From Parcubacteria group bacterium (GTDB lineage Bacteria > Patescibacteriota > Minisyncoccia > Phycocordibacterales > CALRBT01): DNA of 64,000 bases. Under the pieces are notes generated by a model. That model was not told the DNA's origin, ran no database searches, and was given only the letters and a program-made list of their open reading frames with translations. The stretch spans positions 101,424-165,423 of the forward strand of contig CALRBT010000001.1 of the NCBI GenBank assembly GCA_943354475.1, written 5' to 3'. Both the position numbers and the translations under genes were made by a program. Positions 3,166 to 34,238 of the stretch are shown here, in pieces. Position 1 is the stretch's first letter; the number at the start of each line of letters is the position of its first letter.

Positions 3166-6100
3166 TTATAATCCTCGTATGTTGTCAGCAATCATTGAGA
3201 GTGTTCCGTTGCGATCTGACATTTTACCTTTAACCGCAATACATTTATCGAGCTCGAGGAGGCTCTTAAATTCAAACCAGGTTTTTGGGAATACAACCAC
3301 TTCAATATTATCAGTAAAATCAGCGAGCCTCAGGAACGCCATTTTGTCTCCCTTTTTAGTAATGACTGGTTTGCAGTCTTCAATGATCCCCGCAATCATC
3401 CCGTCCTTTCCATTAGTCACCTCTTCCTTTGTTTTCTTTATACTAATCTGTGCTTTTTCTAGTTTTTCTCGTACACGATCAAGTGGATGACCTGAAACAT
3501 AGAGTCCGAGGAGTTCTTTCTCCCAACCAAGTTTTTCTGTAGAGGTTGCCGGAATTACTTCTTTTAGCGTAATTTCTGTGTCAATTGAACTACTTCCAAC
3601 AGCCCCAAAAAGTGAATCTTGATTGGCAGGCCCTTTTTCTAATTCTTTGTTGTATGCGAGCATTTCTTCAACATTGCCTAGTAATAAACCACGTTCACCA
3701 AACTCATCCATTGCACCACATTTAATGAGCGCCTCAAGAGATTTCTTGTTGAGATTTCGGTCACGAATACGATTAAGAAAATTAGTAATGCTGGTGAAGT
3801 GCCCCTTACTCTTACGTTCGTTGATAATTGCATCACCAATCCCTTCACCAAAATTTTTAATGGTATATAATCCAAATCTAATTTTTTTCTTTGCTGAATT
3901 TTCTTCATCACTAATCACGGTAAACCCACCAAAGCTTTCATTGATATCTGGTGGCAGTACTTCAATCCCCATACGTTCACACTCATGTACGATTTCAGCA
4001 ATCTTCTCAACATCTCCCGAATCAGCAGTGAGGACGGATGCCATATAAATAGCAGGGAAGTTGGCCTTCATATAGGCGGTTTGGTAGGCCACCTTACCGT
4101 AACTTGCAGCGTGTGCTTTGTTGAATCCATAGGCGGCAAAGGGCTCAATCAATTTCCACAATTGATTAGCCTTACGTTCACTGAGTCCATGAGCCTGTAG
4201 ACCTTCAAGAAGTTTTCCTTTCTGTGCCTCCATTTCTTCTGGAATTTTTTTACCCATTGCTTTACGAAGTTTGTCCGCTTCAAGCCAGGAATAGCCACCG
4301 AGTTTAATTGCGGTGAGCATGACGTCATCTTGGTAAGTAATCACTCCATAGGATTGAGAGAGAATGTCTTTAAGCCTTGGGTCGATATACTTGATTAACT
4401 CTGGATTGTGTTTACGAGCGATGTACTCAGGAATCATTTCGAGTGGTCCGGGACGATAGAGTGCTACCATCGCGTTGATGTCATGGATAGTTGTTGGTTT
4501 GAGTTCCTTGAGGTATTTGGTCATTCCTTCACCGTTTAGTTGGAAGAGCCCCATTGTCTCACCGTTAGCCAGAAGCCCGAATGTTTTCTTATCATCAACA
4601 GGAACGTTCTCAATATCAACGTCAATATTTTCAATCACTTTCACCAGCTTTACGGCTTCAGCCAGAATTGAGAGGTTTTTAATGCCGAGGAAATCGAACT
4701 TGAGAAGTCCTGCATTATTCTCGTCAATTGAGTACATATCATACTGAGTAATGATCTTGTTCTCACCTTTGGTATCGAACTGTAGTGGTGTGTAATCGGT
4801 AAGTGGCGTAGGGGAGATAACAACACCCGCTGCATGTACGGAGATGTGGCGGGCACAACCTTCAATTTTTTTGGCGAGATCGATAATTTCTTTAACATCT
4901 GCTTCACGTTCATAAATTTCTCGAAGTTCTTGCGTATCAGCGAGTGCCTGTTTGATGGTCATCGGGAAACCTTGGGATCCCATAGGGATTAGTTTGGCAA
5001 TCCGGTCACCGAGGCTGTAGGGATAGCCAAGCGCGCGAGTAACATCACGTACGGATCCACGCGCCATCATGGTACCGAATGTTCCAATCTGCGCCACTTT
5101 ATCTCTGCCATATTTTTCGCGGGCATACTCGATCATTTCATCTCGACGATTGTCGGCAAAGTCCATGTCGATGTCCGGTGCCGAAGGACGCTCTGGGTTT
5201 AGGAAACGTTCAAAGGGTAGTTTGTATTCAAGTGGGTTCACGTTGGTAATTCCAGCAAGGAAAGTAATCAGAGATCCAGCAACGGAGCCTCTAATTGAGG
5301 TGAGAATTTGGTTCTCGTGAGCAAAACGCAGAAGATCTCCTACTACCAGGAAGTAGGGGGAATAACCCTTGTCTTTAATGACTTTAAGTTCGTATTCAAT
5401 ACGTTCCGTCACTTCTTTGGTTTCCTCAATGTTGCGTCGCCTTATTCCTTCAAAGACGATATGTCGCAACTCGTCATCGTAAGAACGGCCACTTTCGACT
5501 TTAAGATCGGGGAAATTCCAAGTACCCAACTTGAGTTCCAGATTGCACATCTCTGCAATCTTTTGTGTGTTCTCGATTGCTTCAGGAATATCTTTGAAGT
5601 ATTCATCTGCTTGTTTGGTTGAGATAAAAGAAAAATCCTCAATGTTTTCACCCATGATACGGTCGCTTCCTTCCTGTTGGTTTTGAATAGCCACCATTGT
5701 CTCTCTAGCCTTTCGGTCTTCTTGTTTCAGATAGTAAACATCATGTGCCGCAACGAGGGGAATACCTGTTCGTCTTGAAAGGAGAATAATCTGATCATTC
5801 AGTTCCTTACTCCCTTCGATTTCTGGATGATGAGTGACTTCTAGAAAGGTGTTCTCTTTGCCAAATATTTTTTCAAACTCTTTGGCGACACTCTCAGCTT
5901 TATCATAGTCCTTCATCTTGAGTGAGAAGGTCGTTTCTCCACTGAAAGAGGGGATGATACAAATGAGTCCTTCATGGTGCTCTCCCATTAATTCTTTATC
6001 AATACGCGGTTTATAGTAGAAACCCTCAAGGTTTGAAAGCGTAACAAGTTTGAGCAAATTTTTGTAACCTATTTCGTCTTTAGCCAAGAGAACCAGCCGG

Positions 6101-7366: not shown

Positions 7367-7395
7367 TTGCCTATTTTAAATAGTTTTGGTATAGT
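7367..7395 (+). promoter_or_regulatory. Sigma70-like promoter (TTGCCT, 17 nt, TATAGT) placing the transcription start at or next to the rpmF ATG
   Basis: The -10 ends 6 nt before the ATG at 7402, and there is no Shine-Dalgarno sequence. Confidence 0.5.
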
Positions 7396-7401
7396 CTCCA
7401 T

Positions 7402-7641
7402 ATGGTTATTCGAATGCGACACACACGAAGTCATACAGGCCTTAGGCGCTCACATCATGCGCTTAAGGCTACTGGTGTTTCCAAGTGTGAAAATTGCGGC
7501 TCTGCTCGCTTACCGCATCAGGCATGTCCTAAGTGTGGAAAATACAAAGGCCGTATTGCAATAGACATTGCGGCTAAAACCATCAAGGCACAGAAGAAGG
7601 CCAAAACAAAAGGAGAAGCCGCAAAGGAGAAAAGCAAGTAG
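7402..7641 (+). CDS. rpmF: 50S ribosomal protein L32 with a lysine-rich C-terminal tail
   Basis: RHTRSHTGLRRSHHALK plus a CxxC...CxxC zinc ribbon (CENCG...CPKCG). Confidence 0.85.
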   Translation: MVIRMRHTRSHTGLRRSHHALKATGVSKCENCGSARLPHQACPKCGKYKGRIAIDIAAKTIKAQKKAKTKGEAAKEKSK

Positions 7642-7703
7642 TTCCCATCCACGGATGCGAAAGACTTGTCTTGAAAATTCTCCAAGATAGATCTTTAATA
7701 TCC

Positions 7704-8648
7704 ATGGCCAATAGGCACCTTTCCAGATCAATAGTAATGCAAACGCTCTTTGAGTGGGACTTTGCAAATGTACTCGAAAAGAAACAAGACGAGCACATCG
7801 ATGAATCCCTGCTACGAAACGCCGAAGAATTCGCTCCGGGCGTTTCTGACGTTCCGTTTATGAAAATGCTGGTCAAAGGGATTCTGGAAAAACGGCAAAC
7901 CCTCGATGATATTATTGTTAAGGCTGCACCGGACTGGCCAATTGACCGCATCTCAGTTATCGATCGAAACATCCTCCGTATCGGACTCTTTGAATTAATT
8001 TTTGCCGACAAGAAAGAAGTGCCCGCTAAAGTTGCCATCAACGAAGCAATTGAACTTGCTAAATCATTTGGTGGAGAGAATAGCGGTAAGTTCGTCAACG
8101 GTGTCCTTGGTGCGGTGTACAAAGAAATGGGGGAGCCGGGTAAAGAAGAAGTTTCAAAGAATAAAAAGAAGAAGAATGGCAAACTAGCCGAAGTTCCTTA
8201 TGAGAAAATGCCCATCCAACGACTAGGTGGTGCTGTAGTCTACGCTAGGGAGGGAGATCAGGTCTATCTCGCACTCGTTCATGACATTTTTGGTCACTGG
8301 ACCCTCTCAAAAGGGAAAATTGGTGATAACCCAGAGATCGCAAACGAAACAGCCAGCGAAGGGACGATTCGAGAAATCAAAGAGGAGATTGGACTCGATA
8401 TTGTCATCAAGGAAGAGCTCTACCTTAATGAATACATTGCCAATGACCCAGAGAAGGGTAAGATTCGCAAACAGGTTCAATACTTTCTGGCTGAATCAAA
8501 GTTCGATGAGGTGAAACTGGAGAAGAGCGGTGGACTCGATGATGCGAGATGGTTCAAGCTCGCTGATATTCTCACCCTTAATTTTTATGACGATGTGCTT
8601 CCTATTGTTACCAAAGCTATTAACATCCTTTTAGTAAAACCAAGTTAG
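7704..8648 (+). CDS. nusB: NusB-family antitermination domain fused to a C-terminal Nudix hydrolase domain
   Basis: The N-terminal half matches NusB (RSIVMQTLFEWDF...AINEAIELAKSFGGENSGKFVNGVL). After a K-rich linker, the C-terminal half has a Nudix box (E-x7-REIKEEIGL). The track start at 7671 is TTG; the ATG is at 7704. Confidence 0.75.
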   Translation: MANRHLSRSIVMQTLFEWDFANVLEKKQDEHIDESLLRNAEEFAPGVSDVPFMKMLVKGILEKRQTLDDIIVKAAPDWPIDRISVIDRNILRIGLFELIFADKKEVPAKVAINEAIELAKSFGGENSGKFVNGVLGAVYKEMGEPGKEEVSKNKKKKNGKLAEVPYEKMPIQRLGGAVVYAREGDQVYLALVHDIFGHWTLSKGKIGDNPEIANETASEGTIREIKEEIGLDIVIKEELYLNEYIANDPEKGKIRKQVQYFLAESKFDEVKLEKSGGLDDARWFKLADILTLNFYDDVLPIVTKAINILLVKPS

Positions 8649-8709: not shown

Positions 8710-9402
8710 ATGAAAGACTTTTCCGAATTCGAAAACAAGATTGGTATCACTTTTAAAGACAAAGCACTCCTGCGAGTCGCTTTTACCCACCGTTCTTTCC
8801 TTAATGAAAATCGTGGCAGTGGCAATCAACACAACGAACGTCTCGAATTTTTAGGGGACGCTGTAGTTGAACTTGCGGTAACTGACTATCTGTATAAAAA
8901 ATTCCCCGATCGGGATGAGGGCGCATTGACTTCATTTCGCGCGGCACTGGTTAACGCAGTAACACTCTCAGATCTTGCAAGTAAACTTTCAATGAATGAT
9001 TATCTTTTGCTCTCCAAGGGTGAGAGTAAGGATGTTGGACGAGCAAGGCAATTTATTCTAGCCAACACGTTTGAGGCATTTGTTGGCGCACTTTTCCTTG
9101 ATCAAGGAATGGAAGCCTGCATTTCTTTTCTTGAAACGCACCTCTACCCACTCACCGACGGTATTGTCGAAGGGCGTCTATGGCAAGATGCCAAGAGCTA
9201 TTTCCAAGAACGTGCTCAAGATGAGGTATCTCTCACCCCATCTTATAGGCTGATTCGTGAAAACGGTCCTGATCATGACAAACAATTTACGATTGGCGTT
9301 TATATCGGCAGTGAGTTGGTTGCCGAAGGTGACGGTAAGTCAAAACAGGAGGCTGAACAGTCTGCTGCCCGTAAGGCCCTTGAGAAAAAAGGCTGGAGCT
9401 AG
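8710..9402 (+). CDS. rnc: Ribonuclease III
   Basis: ERLEFLGDAVVELAVTDYLY catalytic signature plus a C-terminal dsRBD. Confidence 0.9.
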   Translation: MKDFSEFENKIGITFKDKALLRVAFTHRSFLNENRGSGNQHNERLEFLGDAVVELAVTDYLYKKFPDRDEGALTSFRAALVNAVTLSDLASKLSMNDYLLLSKGESKDVGRARQFILANTFEAFVGALFLDQGMEACISFLETHLYPLTDGIVEGRLWQDAKSYFQERAQDEVSLTPSYRLIRENGPDHDKQFTIGVYIGSELVAEGDGKSKQEAEQSAARKALEKKGWS

Positions 9403-9638
9403 AATCTCCATATTTGGTAAATTTCTTTGTTGCTTCGTCGTTTGTTTCTTCCGCCGTACGATTAAGTACGTCTACAGAAACAAACTTCCTCGCGTCTCGA
9501 ACTTTACTCAAATCTGAAGATTCTATGAAAACAAATCTCCTCGCCCCTCTTTCAGCAGAAAGACCTCGTTGAGCACAATGACCTACTGGGTACTGGGTAG
9601 GACTGCATCCAAATCTAGAAGTTCAAAATAAAAGTAAT

Positions 9639-10043
9639 ATGATTCACATTAAATACAAACTCGATAAGTCTATTAATCACGGTATAGGTCTTTTCGCAGG
9701 TGAGGACATTCCAAAAGGAGTAGTTGTATATACTGCGAGTCCTTTACTTGACGTGAACTTAACACGAGAAGAGTTCAATTCCTTGAATGAAAAAGAAAAA
9801 GATGAGGTTCGCTGGTGGGGATTTTTTGATGAACAAAGTCAAAAGTGGCATGTTGATTTTGATGTTTCCCGTTTTATTAATCACAGAGCTGACTCAACGG
9901 TAACCCAAGACTCTAATCATACAGAGGCATATCTTGTTACTACACGTGATATTAAAACTGGAGAAGAACTTACCCAAAATTATCTTGAATTTGAAACTGA
10001 AGCAGATTTAATGAAGCGTGGAATAATGAATGTTTTGGGTTAG
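9639..10043 (+). CDS. Small SET-domain protein (putative lysine methyltransferase)
   Basis: HGIGLFAGEDIPKG, RFINHRAD and GEELTQNY correspond to SET motifs (GxG..., RFINHSC, ELxxDY). It ends 9 bp before the smc-like gene. Confidence 0.55.
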   Translation: MIHIKYKLDKSINHGIGLFAGEDIPKGVVVYTASPLLDVNLTREEFNSLNEKEKDEVRWWGFFDEQSQKWHVDFDVSRFINHRADSTVTQDSNHTEAYLVTTRDIKTGEELTQNYLEFETEADLMKRGIMNVLG

Positions 10044-12361: not shown

Positions 12362-13360
12362 ATGAAAAAAGCATTTATCACCGGTATTACCGGACAAGAC
12401 GGATCCTATTTGGCAGAGCTCCTTCTCTCGAAAGGATACGAAGTTCATGGCCTCATCCATAATCCATCAGAAACAAAAAATGTTGACTCGATTAAGGATA
12501 AGCTGACACTTCATCCGGGAGACATAACTGATGGAGAGTTACTATCAAAAATCATAATTGAAGGACAATTTGATGAAGTCTACAACCTTGCCGGAATGAC
12601 CAATGTACCCGATTCTTTCGCAGACCCAATCCTTGCTACAAAGATGACAGCACTACCCCCACTTTTTATTCTGGACGCAATTGTTAAGGGCAGTAAGCAC
12701 ACAAAACTTTTCCAAGCATCATCTTCTGAGATGTTTGGTAATGGTACCGAAAGTCCCCAACGAGAAACCTCAGGATTTCATCCGACAAATCCTTACGGTA
12801 TCGCTAAACTCTTTGCTCACCATATCTGTGAGGTATATCGTGGAAAATCCGTATTCGCAGCTTCTGGGATTCTCTATAACCACGAGTCGCCTCGTCGAGG
12901 AGAGAAGTTTGTAACAACAAAAATCGTTCGGACACTGGCAGAAATAAAAATGGGAAAAGCAGAAGTCCTTGAATTGGGAGATATCGATGCGATGCGAGAT
13001 TGGGGATTTGCCGGAGATTATGTCTTGGCCATGTGGGAGATGTTACAAGTAGAAAAGGCAGAAAGCTATATTATCGCATCAGGAGCGACACATTCGGCCC
13101 GAGATTTTGTGGATGCGTCAGCCAAGAGTTTGGGTATCGAATTAACCTGGAGCGGAAAAGGGGTAGATCAAAGAGGTGTGGATCAAAATGGAGTAGTTAG
13201 GGTCAAGGTTAATCCAGAATTTTTCAGACCATCAGAGCTTCATATCCGTCAGGGAGATATTACAAAGATTACAAATGAATTGGGATGGAAATCAAAGGTG
13301 CTCTTTGAGGAATTGGTCAAAATGATGACTGATGCAGAAATGTGTAAACTCCAGGGATAA
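12362..13360 (+). CDS. gmd: GDP-mannose 4,6-dehydratase
   Basis: ITGITGQDGSYLAELL, YGIAK (YxxxK) and ILYNHESPRRGEKFVT. Confidence 0.8.
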   Translation: MKKAFITGITGQDGSYLAELLLSKGYEVHGLIHNPSETKNVDSIKDKLTLHPGDITDGELLSKIIIEGQFDEVYNLAGMTNVPDSFADPILATKMTALPPLFILDAIVKGSKHTKLFQASSSEMFGNGTESPQRETSGFHPTNPYGIAKLFAHHICEVYRGKSVFAASGILYNHESPRRGEKFVTTKIVRTLAEIKMGKAEVLELGDIDAMRDWGFAGDYVLAMWEMLQVEKAESYIIASGATHSARDFVDASAKSLGIELTWSGKGVDQRGVDQNGVVRVKVNPEFFRPSELHIRQGDITKITNELGWKSKVLFEELVKMMTDAEMCKLQG

Positions 13361-14111: not shown

Positions 14112-15122
14112 TTACCGAGTCAGTATTTTTTGGTCAGCCTCGATCATCATCGCAATCATTTCTTTAAATGAGACTTGTGGAACCCAACCGAGCACTTCTT
14201 TCGCCTTACTTGCATCACCTCGTAAGTAATCTACTTCATTTGGACGATAAAAATATTTATTGATGCGAATGATAATCTTACCATCTTTAGTAATTCCTAT
14301 TTCATCCAACCCTTCTCCTTGCCAGGTTAAACCCAGGTCTAAAATTTCAGAAGCCATTTCCACCATCTCTCTAATCGTTCGCGACACTCCGGTAGCAATA
14401 ACAAAATCATCAGCCACCTCTTGTTGGAGCATTCGCCACATAGCATTAACATAATCTCCGGCAAAACCCCAGTCACGACGTGCTTCGAGATTCCCCAATT
14501 CAAAGCCTTCGATCATTCCTAATTTTATTTTAACTAAATTTTGTGTCACTTTGCGAGTTACAAAGTTTTCCCCTCGGCGAGGCGACTCGTGATTGAAGAG
14601 AATACCAGAGCAAATAAAGTGTCCTTTCTCTCGCAGTGCTTTGACAATATCGGTATGTGTCTTATGTTTTGACTCTCCATACGGAGAAACAGGTTCAAAG
14701 GGACTTGCTTCATTTTGTGGAGGCTGCGTTTTACCATACATCTCTGAAGTTGAAGCTTGGTAGAATTTAACCTTTGGGTTTTGTTTAAATGCCTCATCAG
14801 CGAGCATTTTAACTCCTTCAAAATTTATGGCCCAAGTTTCATCGGGGCAGTCAAACGAGATACGAACGTCAGATTGCCCTGCAAGGTTATATATTTCATC
14901 CGGCTTTGCAATTTCGAGAGCTCTAATAAGGGTTGCCTTGTCCCTCATATTTCCATAAATCAATTTGACCCTATCATTCTTGATAAGGTGGTTAATCCGA
15001 ATGAATGGATCAGTACTGGTTCGTCTGACCAACCCGTAGATTTCGTAATCTTTAGTTTCTAAAAGGTCTGCCAAATAGGATCCGTCTTGTCCGGTAATAC
15101 CCGTGATGAGTGCTCGCTTCAT
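14112..15122 (-). CDS. gmd: GDP-mannose 4,6-dehydratase, second diverged paralog
   Basis: ITGITGQDGSYLADLL, YGESK, ILFNHESPRRGENFVTRK and MLQQEVADDFVIATG. Confidence 0.8.
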   Translation of the reverse strand: MKRALITGITGQDGSYLADLLETKDYEIYGLVRRTSTDPFIRINHLIKNDRVKLIYGNMRDKATLIRALEIAKPDEIYNLAGQSDVRISFDCPDETWAINFEGVKMLADEAFKQNPKVKFYQASTSEMYGKTQPPQNEASPFEPVSPYGESKHKTHTDIVKALREKGHFICSGILFNHESPRRGENFVTRKVTQNLVKIKLGMIEGFELGNLEARRDWGFAGDYVNAMWRMLQQEVADDFVIATGVSRTIREMVEMASEILDLGLTWQGEGLDEIGITKDGKIIIRINKYFYRPNEVDYLRGDASKAKEVLGWVPQVSFKEMIAMMIEADQKILTR

Positions 15123-15278
15123 ATAGTGCTATAATAAGTTCAACATATTGTATGTTTCTCTGGATTAATTTGCAAACATGTAGACAAAGAATGTAAACTG
15201 CACAGTGAATTAGTATCTTCCGTCACGATTGATTATATATTTAAAAAACTTAAAACCAATTTTATGAAAGGTGAAGGG

Positions 15279-16265
15279 ATGAAGGACACGTCGAATCGTA
15301 AAAAGCAAGAGACCGTCAAGGAGAAAGACAAACCTCTCACTGAGAACCCACACGATATTCCAGAGCGACAAATTCCTCAAGAAACGCTTGAACAAGAAGC
15401 TGAGCGATTACTAGAAAATTTATTGAGTGATAAAGACAATGCTTTTCTTACTGAGCATGAAGAAAATAAAAAACGTTTGGATGAATTCTCCTCGGCGGTT
15501 CAAGCGCTTGCGTTTGCACTCAAAAAGATAGATGAACGTCATGAGCGAACCTCTCGCCTCACACTCGCTTCCCCTGAGGTGTTAGGAGTAGAGATAGTAA
15601 ATGTGAATCCTGTGGGTATAAGGAAGAACGTTGAAGAGATCTTAAAACATGCAATGGAAATTGGTAGGGGAGGTGACGCAATCGTTGTTGTTGATAAAAG
15701 TGAAGTTAGGAGTTTACCTCCAGAAATTTGTTACAAGTTTGCGATTACTGAGACCACCCCTCGTGGAAGAAACTCCACTTTCTCTGAAATTGCTCTCCAA
15801 GAAGCTTTTTACAAAGCTAATATGGAGGTTCCAGAAAGCAAAATTGGTGTACCTATTCCATTTTACGCACATGAGGTTGGAATACATAAAGTGATCGCAA
15901 TGGAGAAGCTCAATGCTAAAAGCGTAGATGATATTTTGCACAGTAAAGGGACGCTACCCCCATGGTTTGATGTCGACACGTTTTGTGATGAATTACACAC
16001 AGTGCTTGATCACTTTCATGCGAAGGGTCTATATCACCGGGACATGCATGAAGGTAATATTATGATTTCTCAACAAAAAGAAATTGGGGATGGAGATAAA
16101 ATCGGTTTTATTATTGATTTTGGCCTCTCTGTTCAAGACGATACAGGGATAGAACCATATAAAAAACAGGTTGCTGGGACAACCTTTACATATTCAGACG
16201 ATTATGGTATCATAAAAAGAGTACAAACTGCTCTTAAAACGTATCAAAAAACACATTTAGCATGA
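15279..16265 (+). CDS. Minimal protein-kinase-like-fold protein (RIO/Bud32/Kdo-kinase-like) with an acidic coiled N-terminal region
   Basis: Catalytic loop YHRDMHEGNIMI and IIDFGLS (DFG), with no activation-segment/APE region after the DFG. The start was moved to the ATG at 15279, preceded by AAAGGTGAAGGG. Confidence 0.5.
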   Translation: MKDTSNRKKQETVKEKDKPLTENPHDIPERQIPQETLEQEAERLLENLLSDKDNAFLTEHEENKKRLDEFSSAVQALAFALKKIDERHERTSRLTLASPEVLGVEIVNVNPVGIRKNVEEILKHAMEIGRGGDAIVVVDKSEVRSLPPEICYKFAITETTPRGRNSTFSEIALQEAFYKANMEVPESKIGVPIPFYAHEVGIHKVIAMEKLNAKSVDDILHSKGTLPPWFDVDTFCDELHTVLDHFHAKGLYHRDMHEGNIMISQQKEIGDGDKIGFIIDFGLSVQDDTGIEPYKKQVAGTTFTYSDDYGIIKRVQTALKTYQKTHLA

Positions 16266-33662: not shown

Positions 33663-34238
33663 TTAGCCTCTCTGATACTCCTCCCATACTGGGGTGAAAT
33701 TTTCACGGAAGACACCCATCTGAATCGTGTCGTGATAACCACCATCTTTCCACATGTGCCGTAGTCGGCGCCCTTCTTCAAAGAACCCACATTTTTTGTA
33801 AGAGGCGATAGCACGTGGATTGAAGTCGTGAACATCAAGTTCGATCTTATGGAGATTCATTTGCATCAGGGCATATTCCAGGAGCAATAATAACGCTTCA
33901 CTCCCGTGACCTTTACCCCAATATTCTTTCTCGCCAATTGCAATACCAAAGGTGGCAACTCTACTAACCCAATCAATTCGATGAAGTCCAATATTACCAA
34001 TTGGAATTCCTTCCTTGGTTACGATAATGAATACTTGGTTACTGAGCTTATCCTTTGCTAAACGATCAATCCAGTCAACCTCGTTTTGCTCAAGTTGCGG
34101 AAAACCAATTCCGAGGTACTTAGTCACCTCAGTATCGTTGAACCATTTGAATAGATGAGGAACATCCGATTTCATTGGAATTCCCAAGTCAGTATTCTTT
34201 TTGCCAATACGAAAGATTGGGCGGGTACTATTTTCCAC
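33663..34238 (-). CDS. GNAT-family N-acetyltransferase (RimJ/RimL-like)
   Basis: GNAT acetyl-CoA motif region (HRIDWVSRVATFGIAIGEKEYWGKGHGSEAL). Confidence 0.75.
   Translation of the reverse strand: MENSTRPIFRIGKKNTDLGIPMKSDVPHLFKWFNDTEVTKYLGIGFPQLEQNEVDWIDRLAKDKLSNQVFIIVTKEGIPIGNIGLHRIDWVSRVATFGIAIGEKEYWGKGHGSEALLLLLEYALMQMNLHKIELDVHDFNPRAIASYKKCGFFEEGRRLRHMWKDGGYHDTIQMGVFRENFTPVWEEYQRG

Follow-up and report, generated by a model that had tools for sequence, protein, structure and literature searches.

NusB is a core, nearly universal bacterial transcription factor that is treated as a single-domain RNA-binding adaptor. In a 64-kb stretch of the genome of a Parcubacteria group bacterium (contig CALRBT010000001.1, positions 101,424 to 165,423; hereafter, the window), the initial annotation described a gene in which NusB is joined to a Nudix hydrolase, and this locus raises the question of whether such a protein is real and, if so, what a Nudix domain might do on NusB. 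Public records label the protein plainly as 'NusB', with the second domain unmentioned, and no description of the fusion was found in the literature searched.

Domain architecture of the fusion protein

The region 7671..8648 on the forward strand is a single ORF without interruption, in which the ATG at position 7704 opens a coding sequence (7704..8648) of 314 codons plus stop; the N-terminus of the encoded protein, MANRHLSRS, is common to nearly all aligned homologues. A Pfam domain scan, as suggested in the initial annotation, detected both domains above the respective cut-offs, namely NusB (PF01029) at residues 7-140 with 122 bits (cut-off 23.1) and NUDIX (PF00293) at residues 177-292 with 35.6 bits (cut-off 21.1). 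The NCBIfam nusB model TIGR01951 also matches, with 127 bits (cut-off 88.35) over model positions 2-130 of 131. The N-terminal half (residues 1-142; 7704..8129, forward strand) has the all-helical NusB fold, and the C-terminal half (residues 165-314; 8196..8645, forward strand) has the alpha/beta/alpha fold of a Nudix domain that resembles ApnA hydrolases. The two are connected by a linker (residues 143-164; 8130..8195, forward strand) consisting of an invariant GEPGK motif, a variable Lys-rich segment, KNKKKKNGK, that occupies residues 152-160 and had been singled out in the initial annotation, and a conserved VPYE.MP motif.

The canonical NusB proteins of Escherichia coli (3d3b), Thermotoga maritima (1tzt) and Aquifex aeolicus (the NusB-NusE-BoxA complex, 3r2c) end at about 140 amino acids, and solved NusB chains comprise 139-156 residues, in agreement with the original description of NusB as a stand-alone protein of this size; the protein in the window adds to this the linker and a Nudix domain of 150 residues. 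In an approximate alignment covering a partial set of contacts, its residues F16, N126 and F130 align with Y18, D118 and F122 of E. coli NusB. These E. coli residues are implicated in NusE and BoxA binding, and N at the position of D118 corresponds to the nusB101 change. A NusB-like domain is also found in RsmB (Sun/Fmu), the 16S rRNA m5C967 methyltransferase (1sqg), where it is a diverged RNA-binding module attached to a Rossmann methyltransferase, whereas in the window protein the N-terminal half scores as a true NusB equivalog, with a Nudix domain as its partner.

An apparent fusion could also arise when an error in sequencing or assembly merges two genes, or when a stop codon is missed, and the only observation in this direction is a related contig, L083, in which the region is called as two genes. 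However, this 'split' amounts to one in-frame TAA replacing an invariant Tyr codon on a contig of 2.4 kb. In the window, no hidden stop or frameshift separates the domains, and the identical protein (P0001) is deposited independently in NCBI and ENA. Furthermore, full-length matches are present in 80 of the 80 genomes retrieved, and each of the best 120 homologues is a single protein of 299-333 amino acids that contains both domains. We therefore reject an artefact, which we regard as next to impossible. Collectively, we are close to certain of the anatomy of the protein: a genuine NusB, a basic, flexible tether some 20 residues long and a C-terminal Nudix domain of the ApnA-hydrolase type.

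The GEPGK motif is invariant in both alignments examined (A1 and A2), and the stretch from GEPGK to LGGA spans 18-26 amino acids (median 20). The linker has a pI of 9.6 and a net charge of +3. In the AF2 model, residues 145-161 have pLDDT values below 50 and the pTM is 0.55, and fixed packing between the NusB and Nudix domains is not predicted.

The Nudix box and its relatives

The Nudix box (8313..8396, forward strand) corresponds to the canonical GX5EX7REUXEEXGU with five residues inserted in the loop between G and E, so that the spacing between G204 and E215 is 10 instead of 5; the exact canonical spacing is found in the family members P0019, P0048 and P0089. The part that had been read as E-x7-REIKEEIGL is present as described (E215-x7-R223-E-I-K-E-E-I-G-L231), and G204, E215, R223, E224, E227, E228, G230 and L231 are all in place. 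In the clade of the window protein (n = 121), G204 and E228 are present in all 121 proteins, R223 in 120, E215 in 119, E227 in 115 and E224 in 112, and E215, R223, E224, E227 and E228 are all intact in 108, such that the catalytic glutamates, the possible loss of which had been pointed out as fatal to the enzymatic assignment, are retained. The pocket residues W199, K203, Y244, W283 and Y295 are conserved in 121 of 121.

Judging from both sequence and fold, the nearest characterised neighbours are ApnA hydrolases (Ndx1, CT771, Rv2985 and the Aquifex Ap4A hydrolase), with identities of 24-28%, and the domain most plausibly belongs with the Nudix enzymes of this type. Ndx1 is from Thermus thermophilus, CT771 from Chlamydia trachomatis and Rv2985/MutT1 from Mycobacterium tuberculosis. 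The Ap6A hydrolase Ndx1 (1vc8), the Ap4A hydrolase CT771 (4ilq/4mpo), the Aquifex aeolicus enzyme (3i7u), Rv2985/MutT1 (9cxx) and NUDT2 share with the window protein the HW..(P/S)KG motif that precedes the box, the Nudix box itself and a C-terminal helix. In contrast to the window protein, with its five-residue insertion in the box loop, these enzymes are either stand-alone or, in the case of MutT1, joined to a histidine-phosphatase domain, and never to NusB. The domain is acidic (pI 4.9) and has no obvious RNA-binding surface.

The 'RppH type' label given to the domain in the initial annotation is not specifically supported, as no RppH model is among the NCBIfam matches at E <= 0.01, and there is neither orthology nor close similarity to RppH of E. 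coli, RppH of Bacillus subtilis or BdRppH. At the level of sequence, this makes it less likely that the domain is an RppH, and leaves unaffected the possibility that it works like one. RppH (E. coli RppH/NudH, B. subtilis RppH and BdRppH, 3ees) belongs to the same superfamily and has the chemistry proposed here, namely removal of pyrophosphate or Np4 caps from RNA 5' ends, and also hydrolyses free NpnN.

Spread and conservation of the fusion

Relatives of the fusion are encoded in at least 589 stretches of species-representative genomes, and all the named genomes among these belong to the ultra-small Patescibacteria/Paceibacteria. The Nudix half is about as conserved as the NusB half (median identity 65.6% and 68.7%, respectively), and the comparison genes rnc, dnaE and smc have medians of 60.5%, 61.4% and 50.4%. 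Purifying selection on the fusion is strong. The fusion is present also in divergent lineages in which the Nudix half is only 29-50% identical. Sister lineages often lack E224 and/or E227, with all five box residues intact in 7 of 35 diverse representatives; the box in these lineages, for example in P0174 and P0275, is stably degenerate, the pocket residues are conserved and the fusion is kept. Across the family, the conserved residues are W199, K203, Y244, W283, Y295, D194 and E228. Given that many sister lineages are missing E224 and/or E227, hydrolysis cannot be the universally conserved role, and the conserved trait seems to be ligand binding rather than hydrolysis alone.

These observations bear on the simplest functional explanation, under which the gene for a housekeeping pyrophosphatase of Ap4A/NpnN (or damaged nucleotides) was fused to the adjacent nusB in the course of genome streamlining, the two halves act independently and the fusion only ensures their co-expression. 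The flexible linker and the lack of a predicted interface would fit, as would the nearest relatives, which are stand-alone small-molecule hydrolases of 126-154 amino acids, and the existence of stand-alone relatives such as P0154 and P0226. Nevertheless, the fusion persists in hundreds of genomes, including those with 29-50% identity in the Nudix half, the GEPGK and VPYE.MP motifs of the linker are conserved, and evolution of the Nudix half is as slow as that of NusB. Moreover, a free-riding hydrolase that has lost catalysis should be lost, whereas the fusion is kept even with a degenerate box. No natural split version with separate, adjacent nusB and nudix genes was found among the candidates L083, P0127, P0195, P0226 and P0154: L083 was rejected as a split ancestor because its two halves are parted only by one in-frame TAA, at the codon for the invariant Tyr139, and P0127 because it is cut by the contig end, whereas P0154 is a stand-alone relative amid integrase, methylase and phage-replication genes and is not near nusB; P0195 and P0226 are on short contigs with too little context to judge. 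No second NusB or related Nudix was found within the 64-kb window. On balance, we consider the housekeeping explanation unlikely.

Retention of the domain in the many lineages that have lost catalytic residues can also be read as a sign that the Nudix domain serves as a structural subunit that mediates protein-protein contacts within the rRNA antitermination complex, catalysis being incidental. A precedent is SuhB, an enzyme-fold protein that is described as integral to the rRNA antitermination complex of E. coli (PMC6614797). However, by homology to ApnA hydrolases, the residues conserved across the family (W199, K203, Y244, W283, Y295, D194 and E228) resemble a nucleotide pocket rather than an interface between proteins, and there is no predicted partner, so that a purely structural role appears quite improbable.

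A conserved pocket could instead serve a nucleotide-alarmone sensor or hydrolase residing on the Nus complex: the Nudix domain would bind a free dinucleoside polyphosphate such as Ap4A or Ap6A, or a related nucleotide, possibly (p)ppGpp or ADP-ribose, its occupancy would modulate the NusB/NusE/BoxA interaction and thereby couple rRNA synthesis to stress, and, where the box is intact, hydrolysis would reset the signal. The parallel is provided by regulators of the NrtR/NadQ type, in which Nudix turned into an effector-binding module. As in the window protein, the Nudix domain of NrtR/NadQ is attached to a nucleic-acid-binding module, and it senses a ligand while its box has degenerated, which recalls the sister lineages of the fusion; the differences are that the partner is a winged-helix DNA-binding domain, that the ligand is ADP-ribose or NAD-related, and that the window protein, whose box is intact, stands nearer to ApnA hydrolases. 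Nudix sensor domains are typically non-catalytic, unlike those in the clade of the window protein, with catalytic residues kept in 108 of 121, and AF2 predicts no contact surface between the domains that could relay occupancy. We view an alarmone sensor as rather unlikely.

Gene neighborhood and a putative BoxA site

The fusion gene is located, as originally noted, between rpmF (ribosomal protein L32; PF01783; 7402..7641, forward strand) and rnc (RNase III; Pfam Ribonuclease_3 plus dsrm; 8710..9402, forward strand), probably within the same transcription unit as both. This gene order is widely kept, with rpmF upstream in 76 of 80 loci and rnc directly downstream in all 80. In the divergent lineages, adjacency to rnc is retained though the outer flanks differ: rnc follows the fusion gene also in L088-L091, with an overlap of 8 nt in L090, and in L092 they are separated by a 23S_rRNA_IVP gene. 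This neighborhood is more informative on NusB than on the Nudix domain; NusB alone explains the adjacency of rnc. A promoter-like site (7367-7395) and a terminator-like hairpin at the end of rnc (9394-9410) were detected, with promoter and terminator counts around the gene that do not exceed those in shuffled sequences, and there is no rRNA gene in the 64-kb window.

Immediately upstream of the fusion gene, 4-14 nt before the start codon, is the BoxA-like element GATCTTTAATA (7690..7700, forward strand), a candidate site for NusB/NusE. It agrees at 10 of 11 positions with the published gamma-proteobacterial consensus GYTCTTTAANA (PMC5725501), with A instead of Y at position 2. Because a scan across the window yielded 13 matches against 16.3 expected, that is, no enrichment and no significance for this site by itself, GATCTTTAATA is meaningful only through positional conservation across genomes. 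Among the window and 79 related loci, GYTCTTTA with at most one mismatch occurs within -40..-1 of the fusion gene in 36 of 80 sequences (shuffle mean 4.2, maximum 11), and the same search before control genes gives 0 of 78 for rnc, 3 of 66 for smc and 5 of 73 for rpmF; the motif was noticed post hoc, and roughly half of the loci have a weak version or none. Where present, the motif mostly begins at -12 to -16, and similar motifs are found in the divergent lineages L088 (GTACTTTAACAA) and L092 (GCTCTTTTAAAA).

BoxA-mediated autoregulation of Nus-factor genes has been documented for E. coli suhB and predicted for nusE and ribH-nusB (PMC5725501). In those cases, as here, a BoxA-like sequence is found less than 50 nt upstream of the start of a Nus-factor gene and overlaps the translation initiation region. 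However, the published system is limited to gamma-proteobacteria, whereas the putative patescibacterial BoxA is directly before nusB-nudix and varies among genomes. We give autoregulation of NusB-Nudix through the putative BoxA site an even chance.

A possible role at the RNA 5' end

The idea, already present in the initial annotation, that the fusion brings an RNA 5'-end activity onto the Nus complex is plausible by analogy, since RppH removes NpnN/Np4 caps from RNA (PMC7044304, PMC8833179) and the Ap4A hydrolase NUDT2 converts PPP-RNA to P-RNA (PMC8616924). The mechanism that we prefer, as a tentative proposal with a reasonable though not an even prospect of being right, is that the Nudix domain targets nascent RNA carrying BoxA, whose 5'-polyphosphate or Np4 end it either binds or hydrolyses. 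The NusB half together with NusE/S10 would bind BoxA on nascent RNA, namely the pre-rRNA leader and a few mRNAs including its own, and travel with RNA polymerase, while the tether would confine the pocket of the Nudix domain to a few nanometres from this RNA. The Nudix domain could then bind the 5'-terminal polyphosphate structure (5'-PPP or Np4 cap) and, in lineages with an intact box, hydrolyse it to a 5'-monophosphate. This would tag the BoxA-bearing leader, once RNase III has released it, for decay that depends on the 5' end, and would free NusB/NusE. Because the putative BoxA of its own mRNA overlaps the ribosome-binding region, the protein might in addition exert negative feedback on its own synthesis.

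This 5'-end mechanism is consistent with the intact catalytic residues (108 of 121) and pocket residues (121 of 121), the disordered basic linker, the wide conservation of the fusion, the adjacency of rnc in 80 of 80 loci, the position-specific BoxA-like motif and the RppH/NUDT2 precedent. It also fits the recurrent joining of related Nudix domains to nucleic-acid-binding modules, as seen in proteins with Rho_N tails, in CSD-NusB-Nudix and in the combination of Sigma70_r4, DnaA_C HTH and Nudix. Arguing against it are the acidic nature of the domain (pI 4.9), the status of small-molecule ApnA hydrolases as its nearest characterised relatives and the sufficiency of NusB alone to account for the rnc adjacency; the idea is further complicated because the catalytic box has degenerated in sister lineages that nonetheless retain the fusion. 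A broader version that accommodates these lineages is possible, if somewhat doubtful. It posits a patescibacterial reader and eraser of 5' ends within the rRNA antitermination machine: NusB would sit on BoxA while the tethered Nudix domain captures the 5'-triphosphate or Np4 end of the same transcript, converting it to a monophosphate in the intact-box lineages and acting as a non-catalytic clamp for the 5' end or nucleotide in the sister lineages. If true, Nus-dependent folding of rRNA and its processing by RNase III would be coupled to clearance of the leader, and the protein would be the first transcription elongation factor able to modify RNA 5' ends by itself.

Implications

In a bacterial radiation that is very large and still little understood, NusB is permanently joined to a domain of nucleotide-polyphosphate-binding enzymes whose conservation matches that of the replicative polymerase, and the 'NusB' annotation conceals this second domain in thousands of records. 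Should the Nudix domain act on the 5' end of nascent RNA, antitermination, RNase III processing and 5'-end-dependent decay would be linked in one polypeptide, and the protein would represent a natural, sequence-targeted RppH-like enzyme. Should it sense ApnA alarmones, it would directly connect stress nucleotides with rRNA synthesis in organisms that are poor in regulators. The lineages with intact and degenerate boxes offer a ready-made comparative experiment on the evolution of an enzyme into a binding module.

The NusB-Nudix fusion and its authenticity

The fusion gene (7704-8648, forward strand) occupies a single open reading frame that runs without interruption from 7671 to 8648 on the + strand and, with the start at the ATG at 7704, encodes a protein of 314 aa whose N-terminus, MANRHLSRS, is common to nearly all aligned homologues. 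The Pfam scan proposed in the initial annotation detected both domains above cut-off, NusB at residues 7-140 (PF01029, 122 bits) and NUDIX at residues 177-292 (PF00293, 35.6 bits, cut-off 21.1); together with the unbroken frame, this bears out the claim that the two are joined in one gene. The NusB part is genuine, matching the NCBIfam nusB equivalog TIGR01951 with 127 bits (cut-off 88.35). The KNKKKKNGK linker is indeed present at residues 152-160, as is the Nudix box E-x7-REIKEEIGL, with E215 as its first glutamate. The full box, G204-x10-E215-x7-R223-E224-I-K-E227-E228-I-G230-L231, has the canonical form GX5EX7REUXEEXGU except for five residues inserted between the glycine and the first glutamate; because the relatives P0019, P0048 and P0089 have exactly the canonical spacing, the insertion sits in a tolerant loop. 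The catalytic glutamates E215, E224, E227 and E228, whose absence would have undermined the annotation, are all in place, and these four and R223 are all intact in 108 of the 121 closely related fusion proteins that make up the window's clade.

The hidden stop or frameshift that might separate the domains was looked for and is absent: the frame is continuous, and NCBI and ENA both list an identical protein (P0001). Among 8000 scored candidates, all with E <= 1e-3, the best 120 are single proteins of 299-333 aa with 66-84% identity, all of them with both Pfam domains, so that an artefact is refuted with near certainty. Where named, these 120 bear no other name than 'transcription antitermination factor NusB' and are assigned to Paceibacterota, Parcubacteria, Adlerbacteria or Patescibacteria. 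The suggested survey found the fusion to be common, with at least 589 confirmed stretches encoding relatives when one genome per species was scanned; the best 80 of these belong to Kaiser-, Adler-, Nomura-, Taylor-, Zambryski- and Wolfebacteria, Minisyncoccia and other Patescibacteria. The label 'uncultured Candidatus Saccharibacteria' attached to many stretches from bulk third-party assemblies is regarded as unreliable. Across 80 genomes, the median identity to the window protein is 68.7% for the NusB half and 65.6% for the Nudix half, compared with 61.4% for DnaE, 60.5% for RNase III, 51.8% for L32, 50.4% for SMC and 49.3% for RNase HII; both halves are under strong purifying selection. In public records the fusion sequences are annotated as NusB, with precomputed Pfam matches for both domains, and no description of the fusion was found in the literature searched. 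The architecture is that of a Nus factor carrying an appended enzyme or ligand-binding domain.

No natural nusB/nudix split was found among the relatives examined. On L083, a 2.4-kb NCBI metagenome contig whose annotation divides the fusion into two genes, the Tyr139 codon, otherwise invariant, has become a single in-frame TAA (940-942) and the frame is unchanged beyond it (GAV*KELGEPRKD), so that the apparent split is due either to a nonsense mutation or to an error in sequencing; P0127, another candidate split form, is cut by the contig end. A C-terminal Rho_N (HeH-like) tail is appended to the fusion in P0129 (28.8 bits, above cut-off) and, below cut-off, in P0141, and P0236 (577 aa) has a weak cold-shock domain (CSD) match followed by NusB and Nudix. 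P0199 combines Sigma70_r4, a DnaA C-terminal HTH and the same Nudix type without NusB. A true stand-alone relative of the Nudix domain is P0154 (L081, 4001-4453; 150 aa, 43% identical, box intact), whose neighbours, a phage-type integrase, a DNA methylase and a Phage_rep_O-like gene, look like a mobile element or prophage. P0137 (142 aa) resembles another, MutT-like Nudix in its N-terminal half (GQWVAPGGRIEFGE) and closely matches the fusion family from the Nudix box on; it may result from chimeric assembly or from recombination.

AlphaFold2, given 75 homologues, modelled the window protein with a mean pLDDT of 85.5, the values being mostly above 90 in both domains and below 50 for residues 145-161, and with a pTM of only 0.55; in this model the two domains are well folded, the tether between them is flexible and no fixed interface is predicted. 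The tether is basic (pI 9.6), has a median length of 20 residues in the clade (range 18-26) and is flanked by an invariant GEPGK and a conserved VPYE.MP. The Nudix half is acidic (pI 4.9, net charge -7).

Gene neighbourhood

As annotated, the gene lies between rpmF (7402-7641) and rnc (8710-9402). The rnc gene is directly 3' of the fusion in 80 of 80 loci and rpmF is 5' in 76 of 80; the L32 - fusion - RNase III core is kept in divergent lineages despite other outer flanks (including SpoU methylase, TlyA-like S4+FtsJ and rpoB), and one of them shows an 8-nt overlap of the fusion with the start of rnc. This operon-like arrangement is good evidence that the fusion shares an operon with the RNase III gene. 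Since Nus factors act together with RNase III in the maturation of 16S rRNA, the link to rnc is explicable by NusB alone. At loci L090-L092, the gene for the TlyA-like S4+FtsJ rRNA methyltransferase, not smc, comes after rnc, and in L092 a 23S_rRNA_IVP-family gene (4446-4808) lies between the fusion gene and rnc.

The window otherwise holds ordinary core genes (dnaE, rnhB, smc, RNase R, trmD, rpoB/C, dnaG, rpoD, hisS), and no second NusB or related Nudix was found within its 64 kb. Between rnc and smc, a gene at 9639-10043 (+) encodes a 134-aa SET-domain protein (PF00856, E 1.6e-13) with no NCBIfam match; as tblastn found no counterpart in any of the 80 related loci, the gene seems to have been inserted only in this genome or in its close kin. 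Two paralogous GDP-mannose 4,6-dehydratase genes (12362-13360, +, and 14112-15122, -; each about 370 bits, PF16363) enclose a 181-aa ORF without Pfam match and are followed by a protein-kinase-like/ABC1-like gene (15264-16265).

A BoxA-like site upstream of the fusion gene

The most frequent k-mers in the 160 nt 5' of the fusion gene, counted over the related loci plus the window, were AGTTCTTT/GTTCTTT, which resemble BoxA, the consensus of which, GYTCTTTAANA, was derived for gamma-proteobacteria (PMC5725501). The site in the window, GATCTTTAATA (7690-7700, +), lies 4-14 nt 5' of the ATG and matches this gamma-proteobacterial consensus at 10 of 11 positions; the family consensus is aAGTTCTTTAAa. 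When GYTCTTTA was sought with at most one mismatch within 40 nt 5' of the gene in 79 related loci and the window, the motif, which was spotted post hoc and has no clear match in about half of the loci, preceded the fusion gene in 36 of 80 (shuffles: mean 4.2, maximum 11), and the control genes gave 0/78 (rnc), 3/66 (smc) and 5/73 (rpmF). It mostly starts at -12 to -16 and therefore covers the ribosome-binding region. Similar motifs also occur in the divergent lineages L088, L090 and L092, with GTACTTTAACAA, GTACTTTTTAAACAA and GCTCTTTTAAAA at the equivalent position. Within the window alone BoxA-like words are not enriched (13 seen versus 16.3 expected), so that the case for BoxA rests on positional conservation.

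The layout parallels that of suhB, for which BoxA-mediated translational repression is known, and of nusE and ribH-nusB, for which autoregulation is predicted (PMC5725501). The site thus suggests a candidate NusB/NusE autoregulation through occlusion of the translation start, and the analogy supports a NusB half that would be a working BoxA binder limiting its own synthesis.

Elsewhere in the window, upstream of a PF13302 (RimJ/RimL-type) GNAT acetyltransferase gene (33663-34238, -), the segment 34257-34330 (-) comprises a terminator-like hairpin, a small hairpin CCTGA-aacc-TCAGG and then GCTCTTTAACAA, which ends about 18 nt 5' of the GTG start. This word exactly matches GYTCTTTAANA, the gamma-proteobacterial consensus, and also the E. 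coli rrn BoxA; the BoxB-like hairpin plus BoxA layout makes the site a candidate second Nus target.

Class of the Nudix domain and fate of its catalytic box

By sequence, the nearest solved proteins are Chlamydia trachomatis CT771 (E 7e-8), Mycobacterium tuberculosis MutT1/Rv2985 and Thermus thermophilus Ndx1, an Ap6A hydrolase. Foldseek ranked an Aquifex Ap4A hydrolase first (E 7e-9, TM 0.82), followed by Rv2985 ('Nudix diadenosine polyphosphatase'), M. smegmatis MutT1, Ndx1 and CT771 and, lower, by the Ap4A hydrolases of C. elegans and human; NrtR/NadQ are also among the fold matches. Barta et al. 2014, cited in PMC5526541, describe CT771 as an asymmetric Ap4A hydrolase. Because its nearest sequence and fold matches are such enzymes, the domain belongs with the dinucleoside-polyphosphate (ApnA) hydrolases. 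The earlier assignment to the RppH type is not specifically supported as a membership, the NCBIfam output for the window protein containing no RppH model. An RppH-like function is possible by analogy: RppH cleaves both NpnN caps and free NpnN (PMC7044304, PMC8833179), and the Ap4A hydrolase NUDT2 converts PPP-RNA to P-RNA (PMC8616924).

Of 1.84 billion cluster representatives searched with the Nudix domain alone, only 594 matched at E <= 1e-3, of which 137 reached E <= 1e-10; many of the matches are proteins of about 290-315 aa aligned at residues about 155-290, which are divergent fusions with identity down to 29%. In the window's clade, the pocket residues H193, D194, H198, W199, K203, G204, Y244, W283 and Y295 are each present in 121/121. 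Among 35 diverse full-length fusion representatives, all five box residues are intact in 7, E227 and E228 together in 18 and E228 in 32; for the pocket, W199 is kept in 35, K203, W283 and Y295 in 34 each and Y244 in 30. Sister lineages, namely that of the divergent fusion P0174 (A3; loci L088-L091) and the 50%-cluster representatives P0136-P0264, keep the fusion with a stably degenerate box. All five residues are intact in 35 of 117 proteins around P0174 and E227 is replaced by Lys in 46, with H193, D194, W199, K203, W283 and Y295 retained in 117/117 and Y244 in 116/117. In one lineage, which numbers at least 21 sequences (51-100% identical), the box is fixed as CKSH...R[VI]VKKEFG[IV] in a domain otherwise strongly conserved; its closest members have no precomputed Pfam NUDIX annotation and score only 23.8-31 bits when scanned, and the lineage is still modelled as NusB, linker and Nudix (pLDDT 83.6). 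As the pocket residues are kept while the box decays, the property conserved family-wide appears to be the pocket, i.e., ligand binding; hydrolysis has probably persisted in the clade of the window, other lineages having relaxed or lost it. The degenerate-box lineages, the acidic Nudix domain and the NrtR/NadQ fold matches all favour an NrtR-like alarmone sensor or hydrolase modulating the Nus complex, a reading that we consider possible if doubtful. A housekeeping ApnA hydrolase uncoupled from NusB is unlikely, given that the Nudix domain is kept after box decay and that the linker motifs are conserved.

Possible function

Our best guess, held tentatively, is that the tethered Nudix domain acts on the 5' end of BoxA-bearing nascent RNA. 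NusB and S10 would assemble on BoxA of the nascent RNA, and a nearby 5'-PPP or Np4-capped end would be captured by the tethered Nudix pocket and, in the window's clade, converted to 5'-P; this conversion would help clearance of the BoxA-bearing leader after RNase III cleavage, with NusB/S10 being recycled. A purely structural, SuhB-like subunit, for which the main support is the precedent of SuhB itself, appears improbable. Domain fusions are not rare in streamlined genomes. The present one is lineage-wide in a major bacterial radiation, and its architecture is real and strongly conserved.
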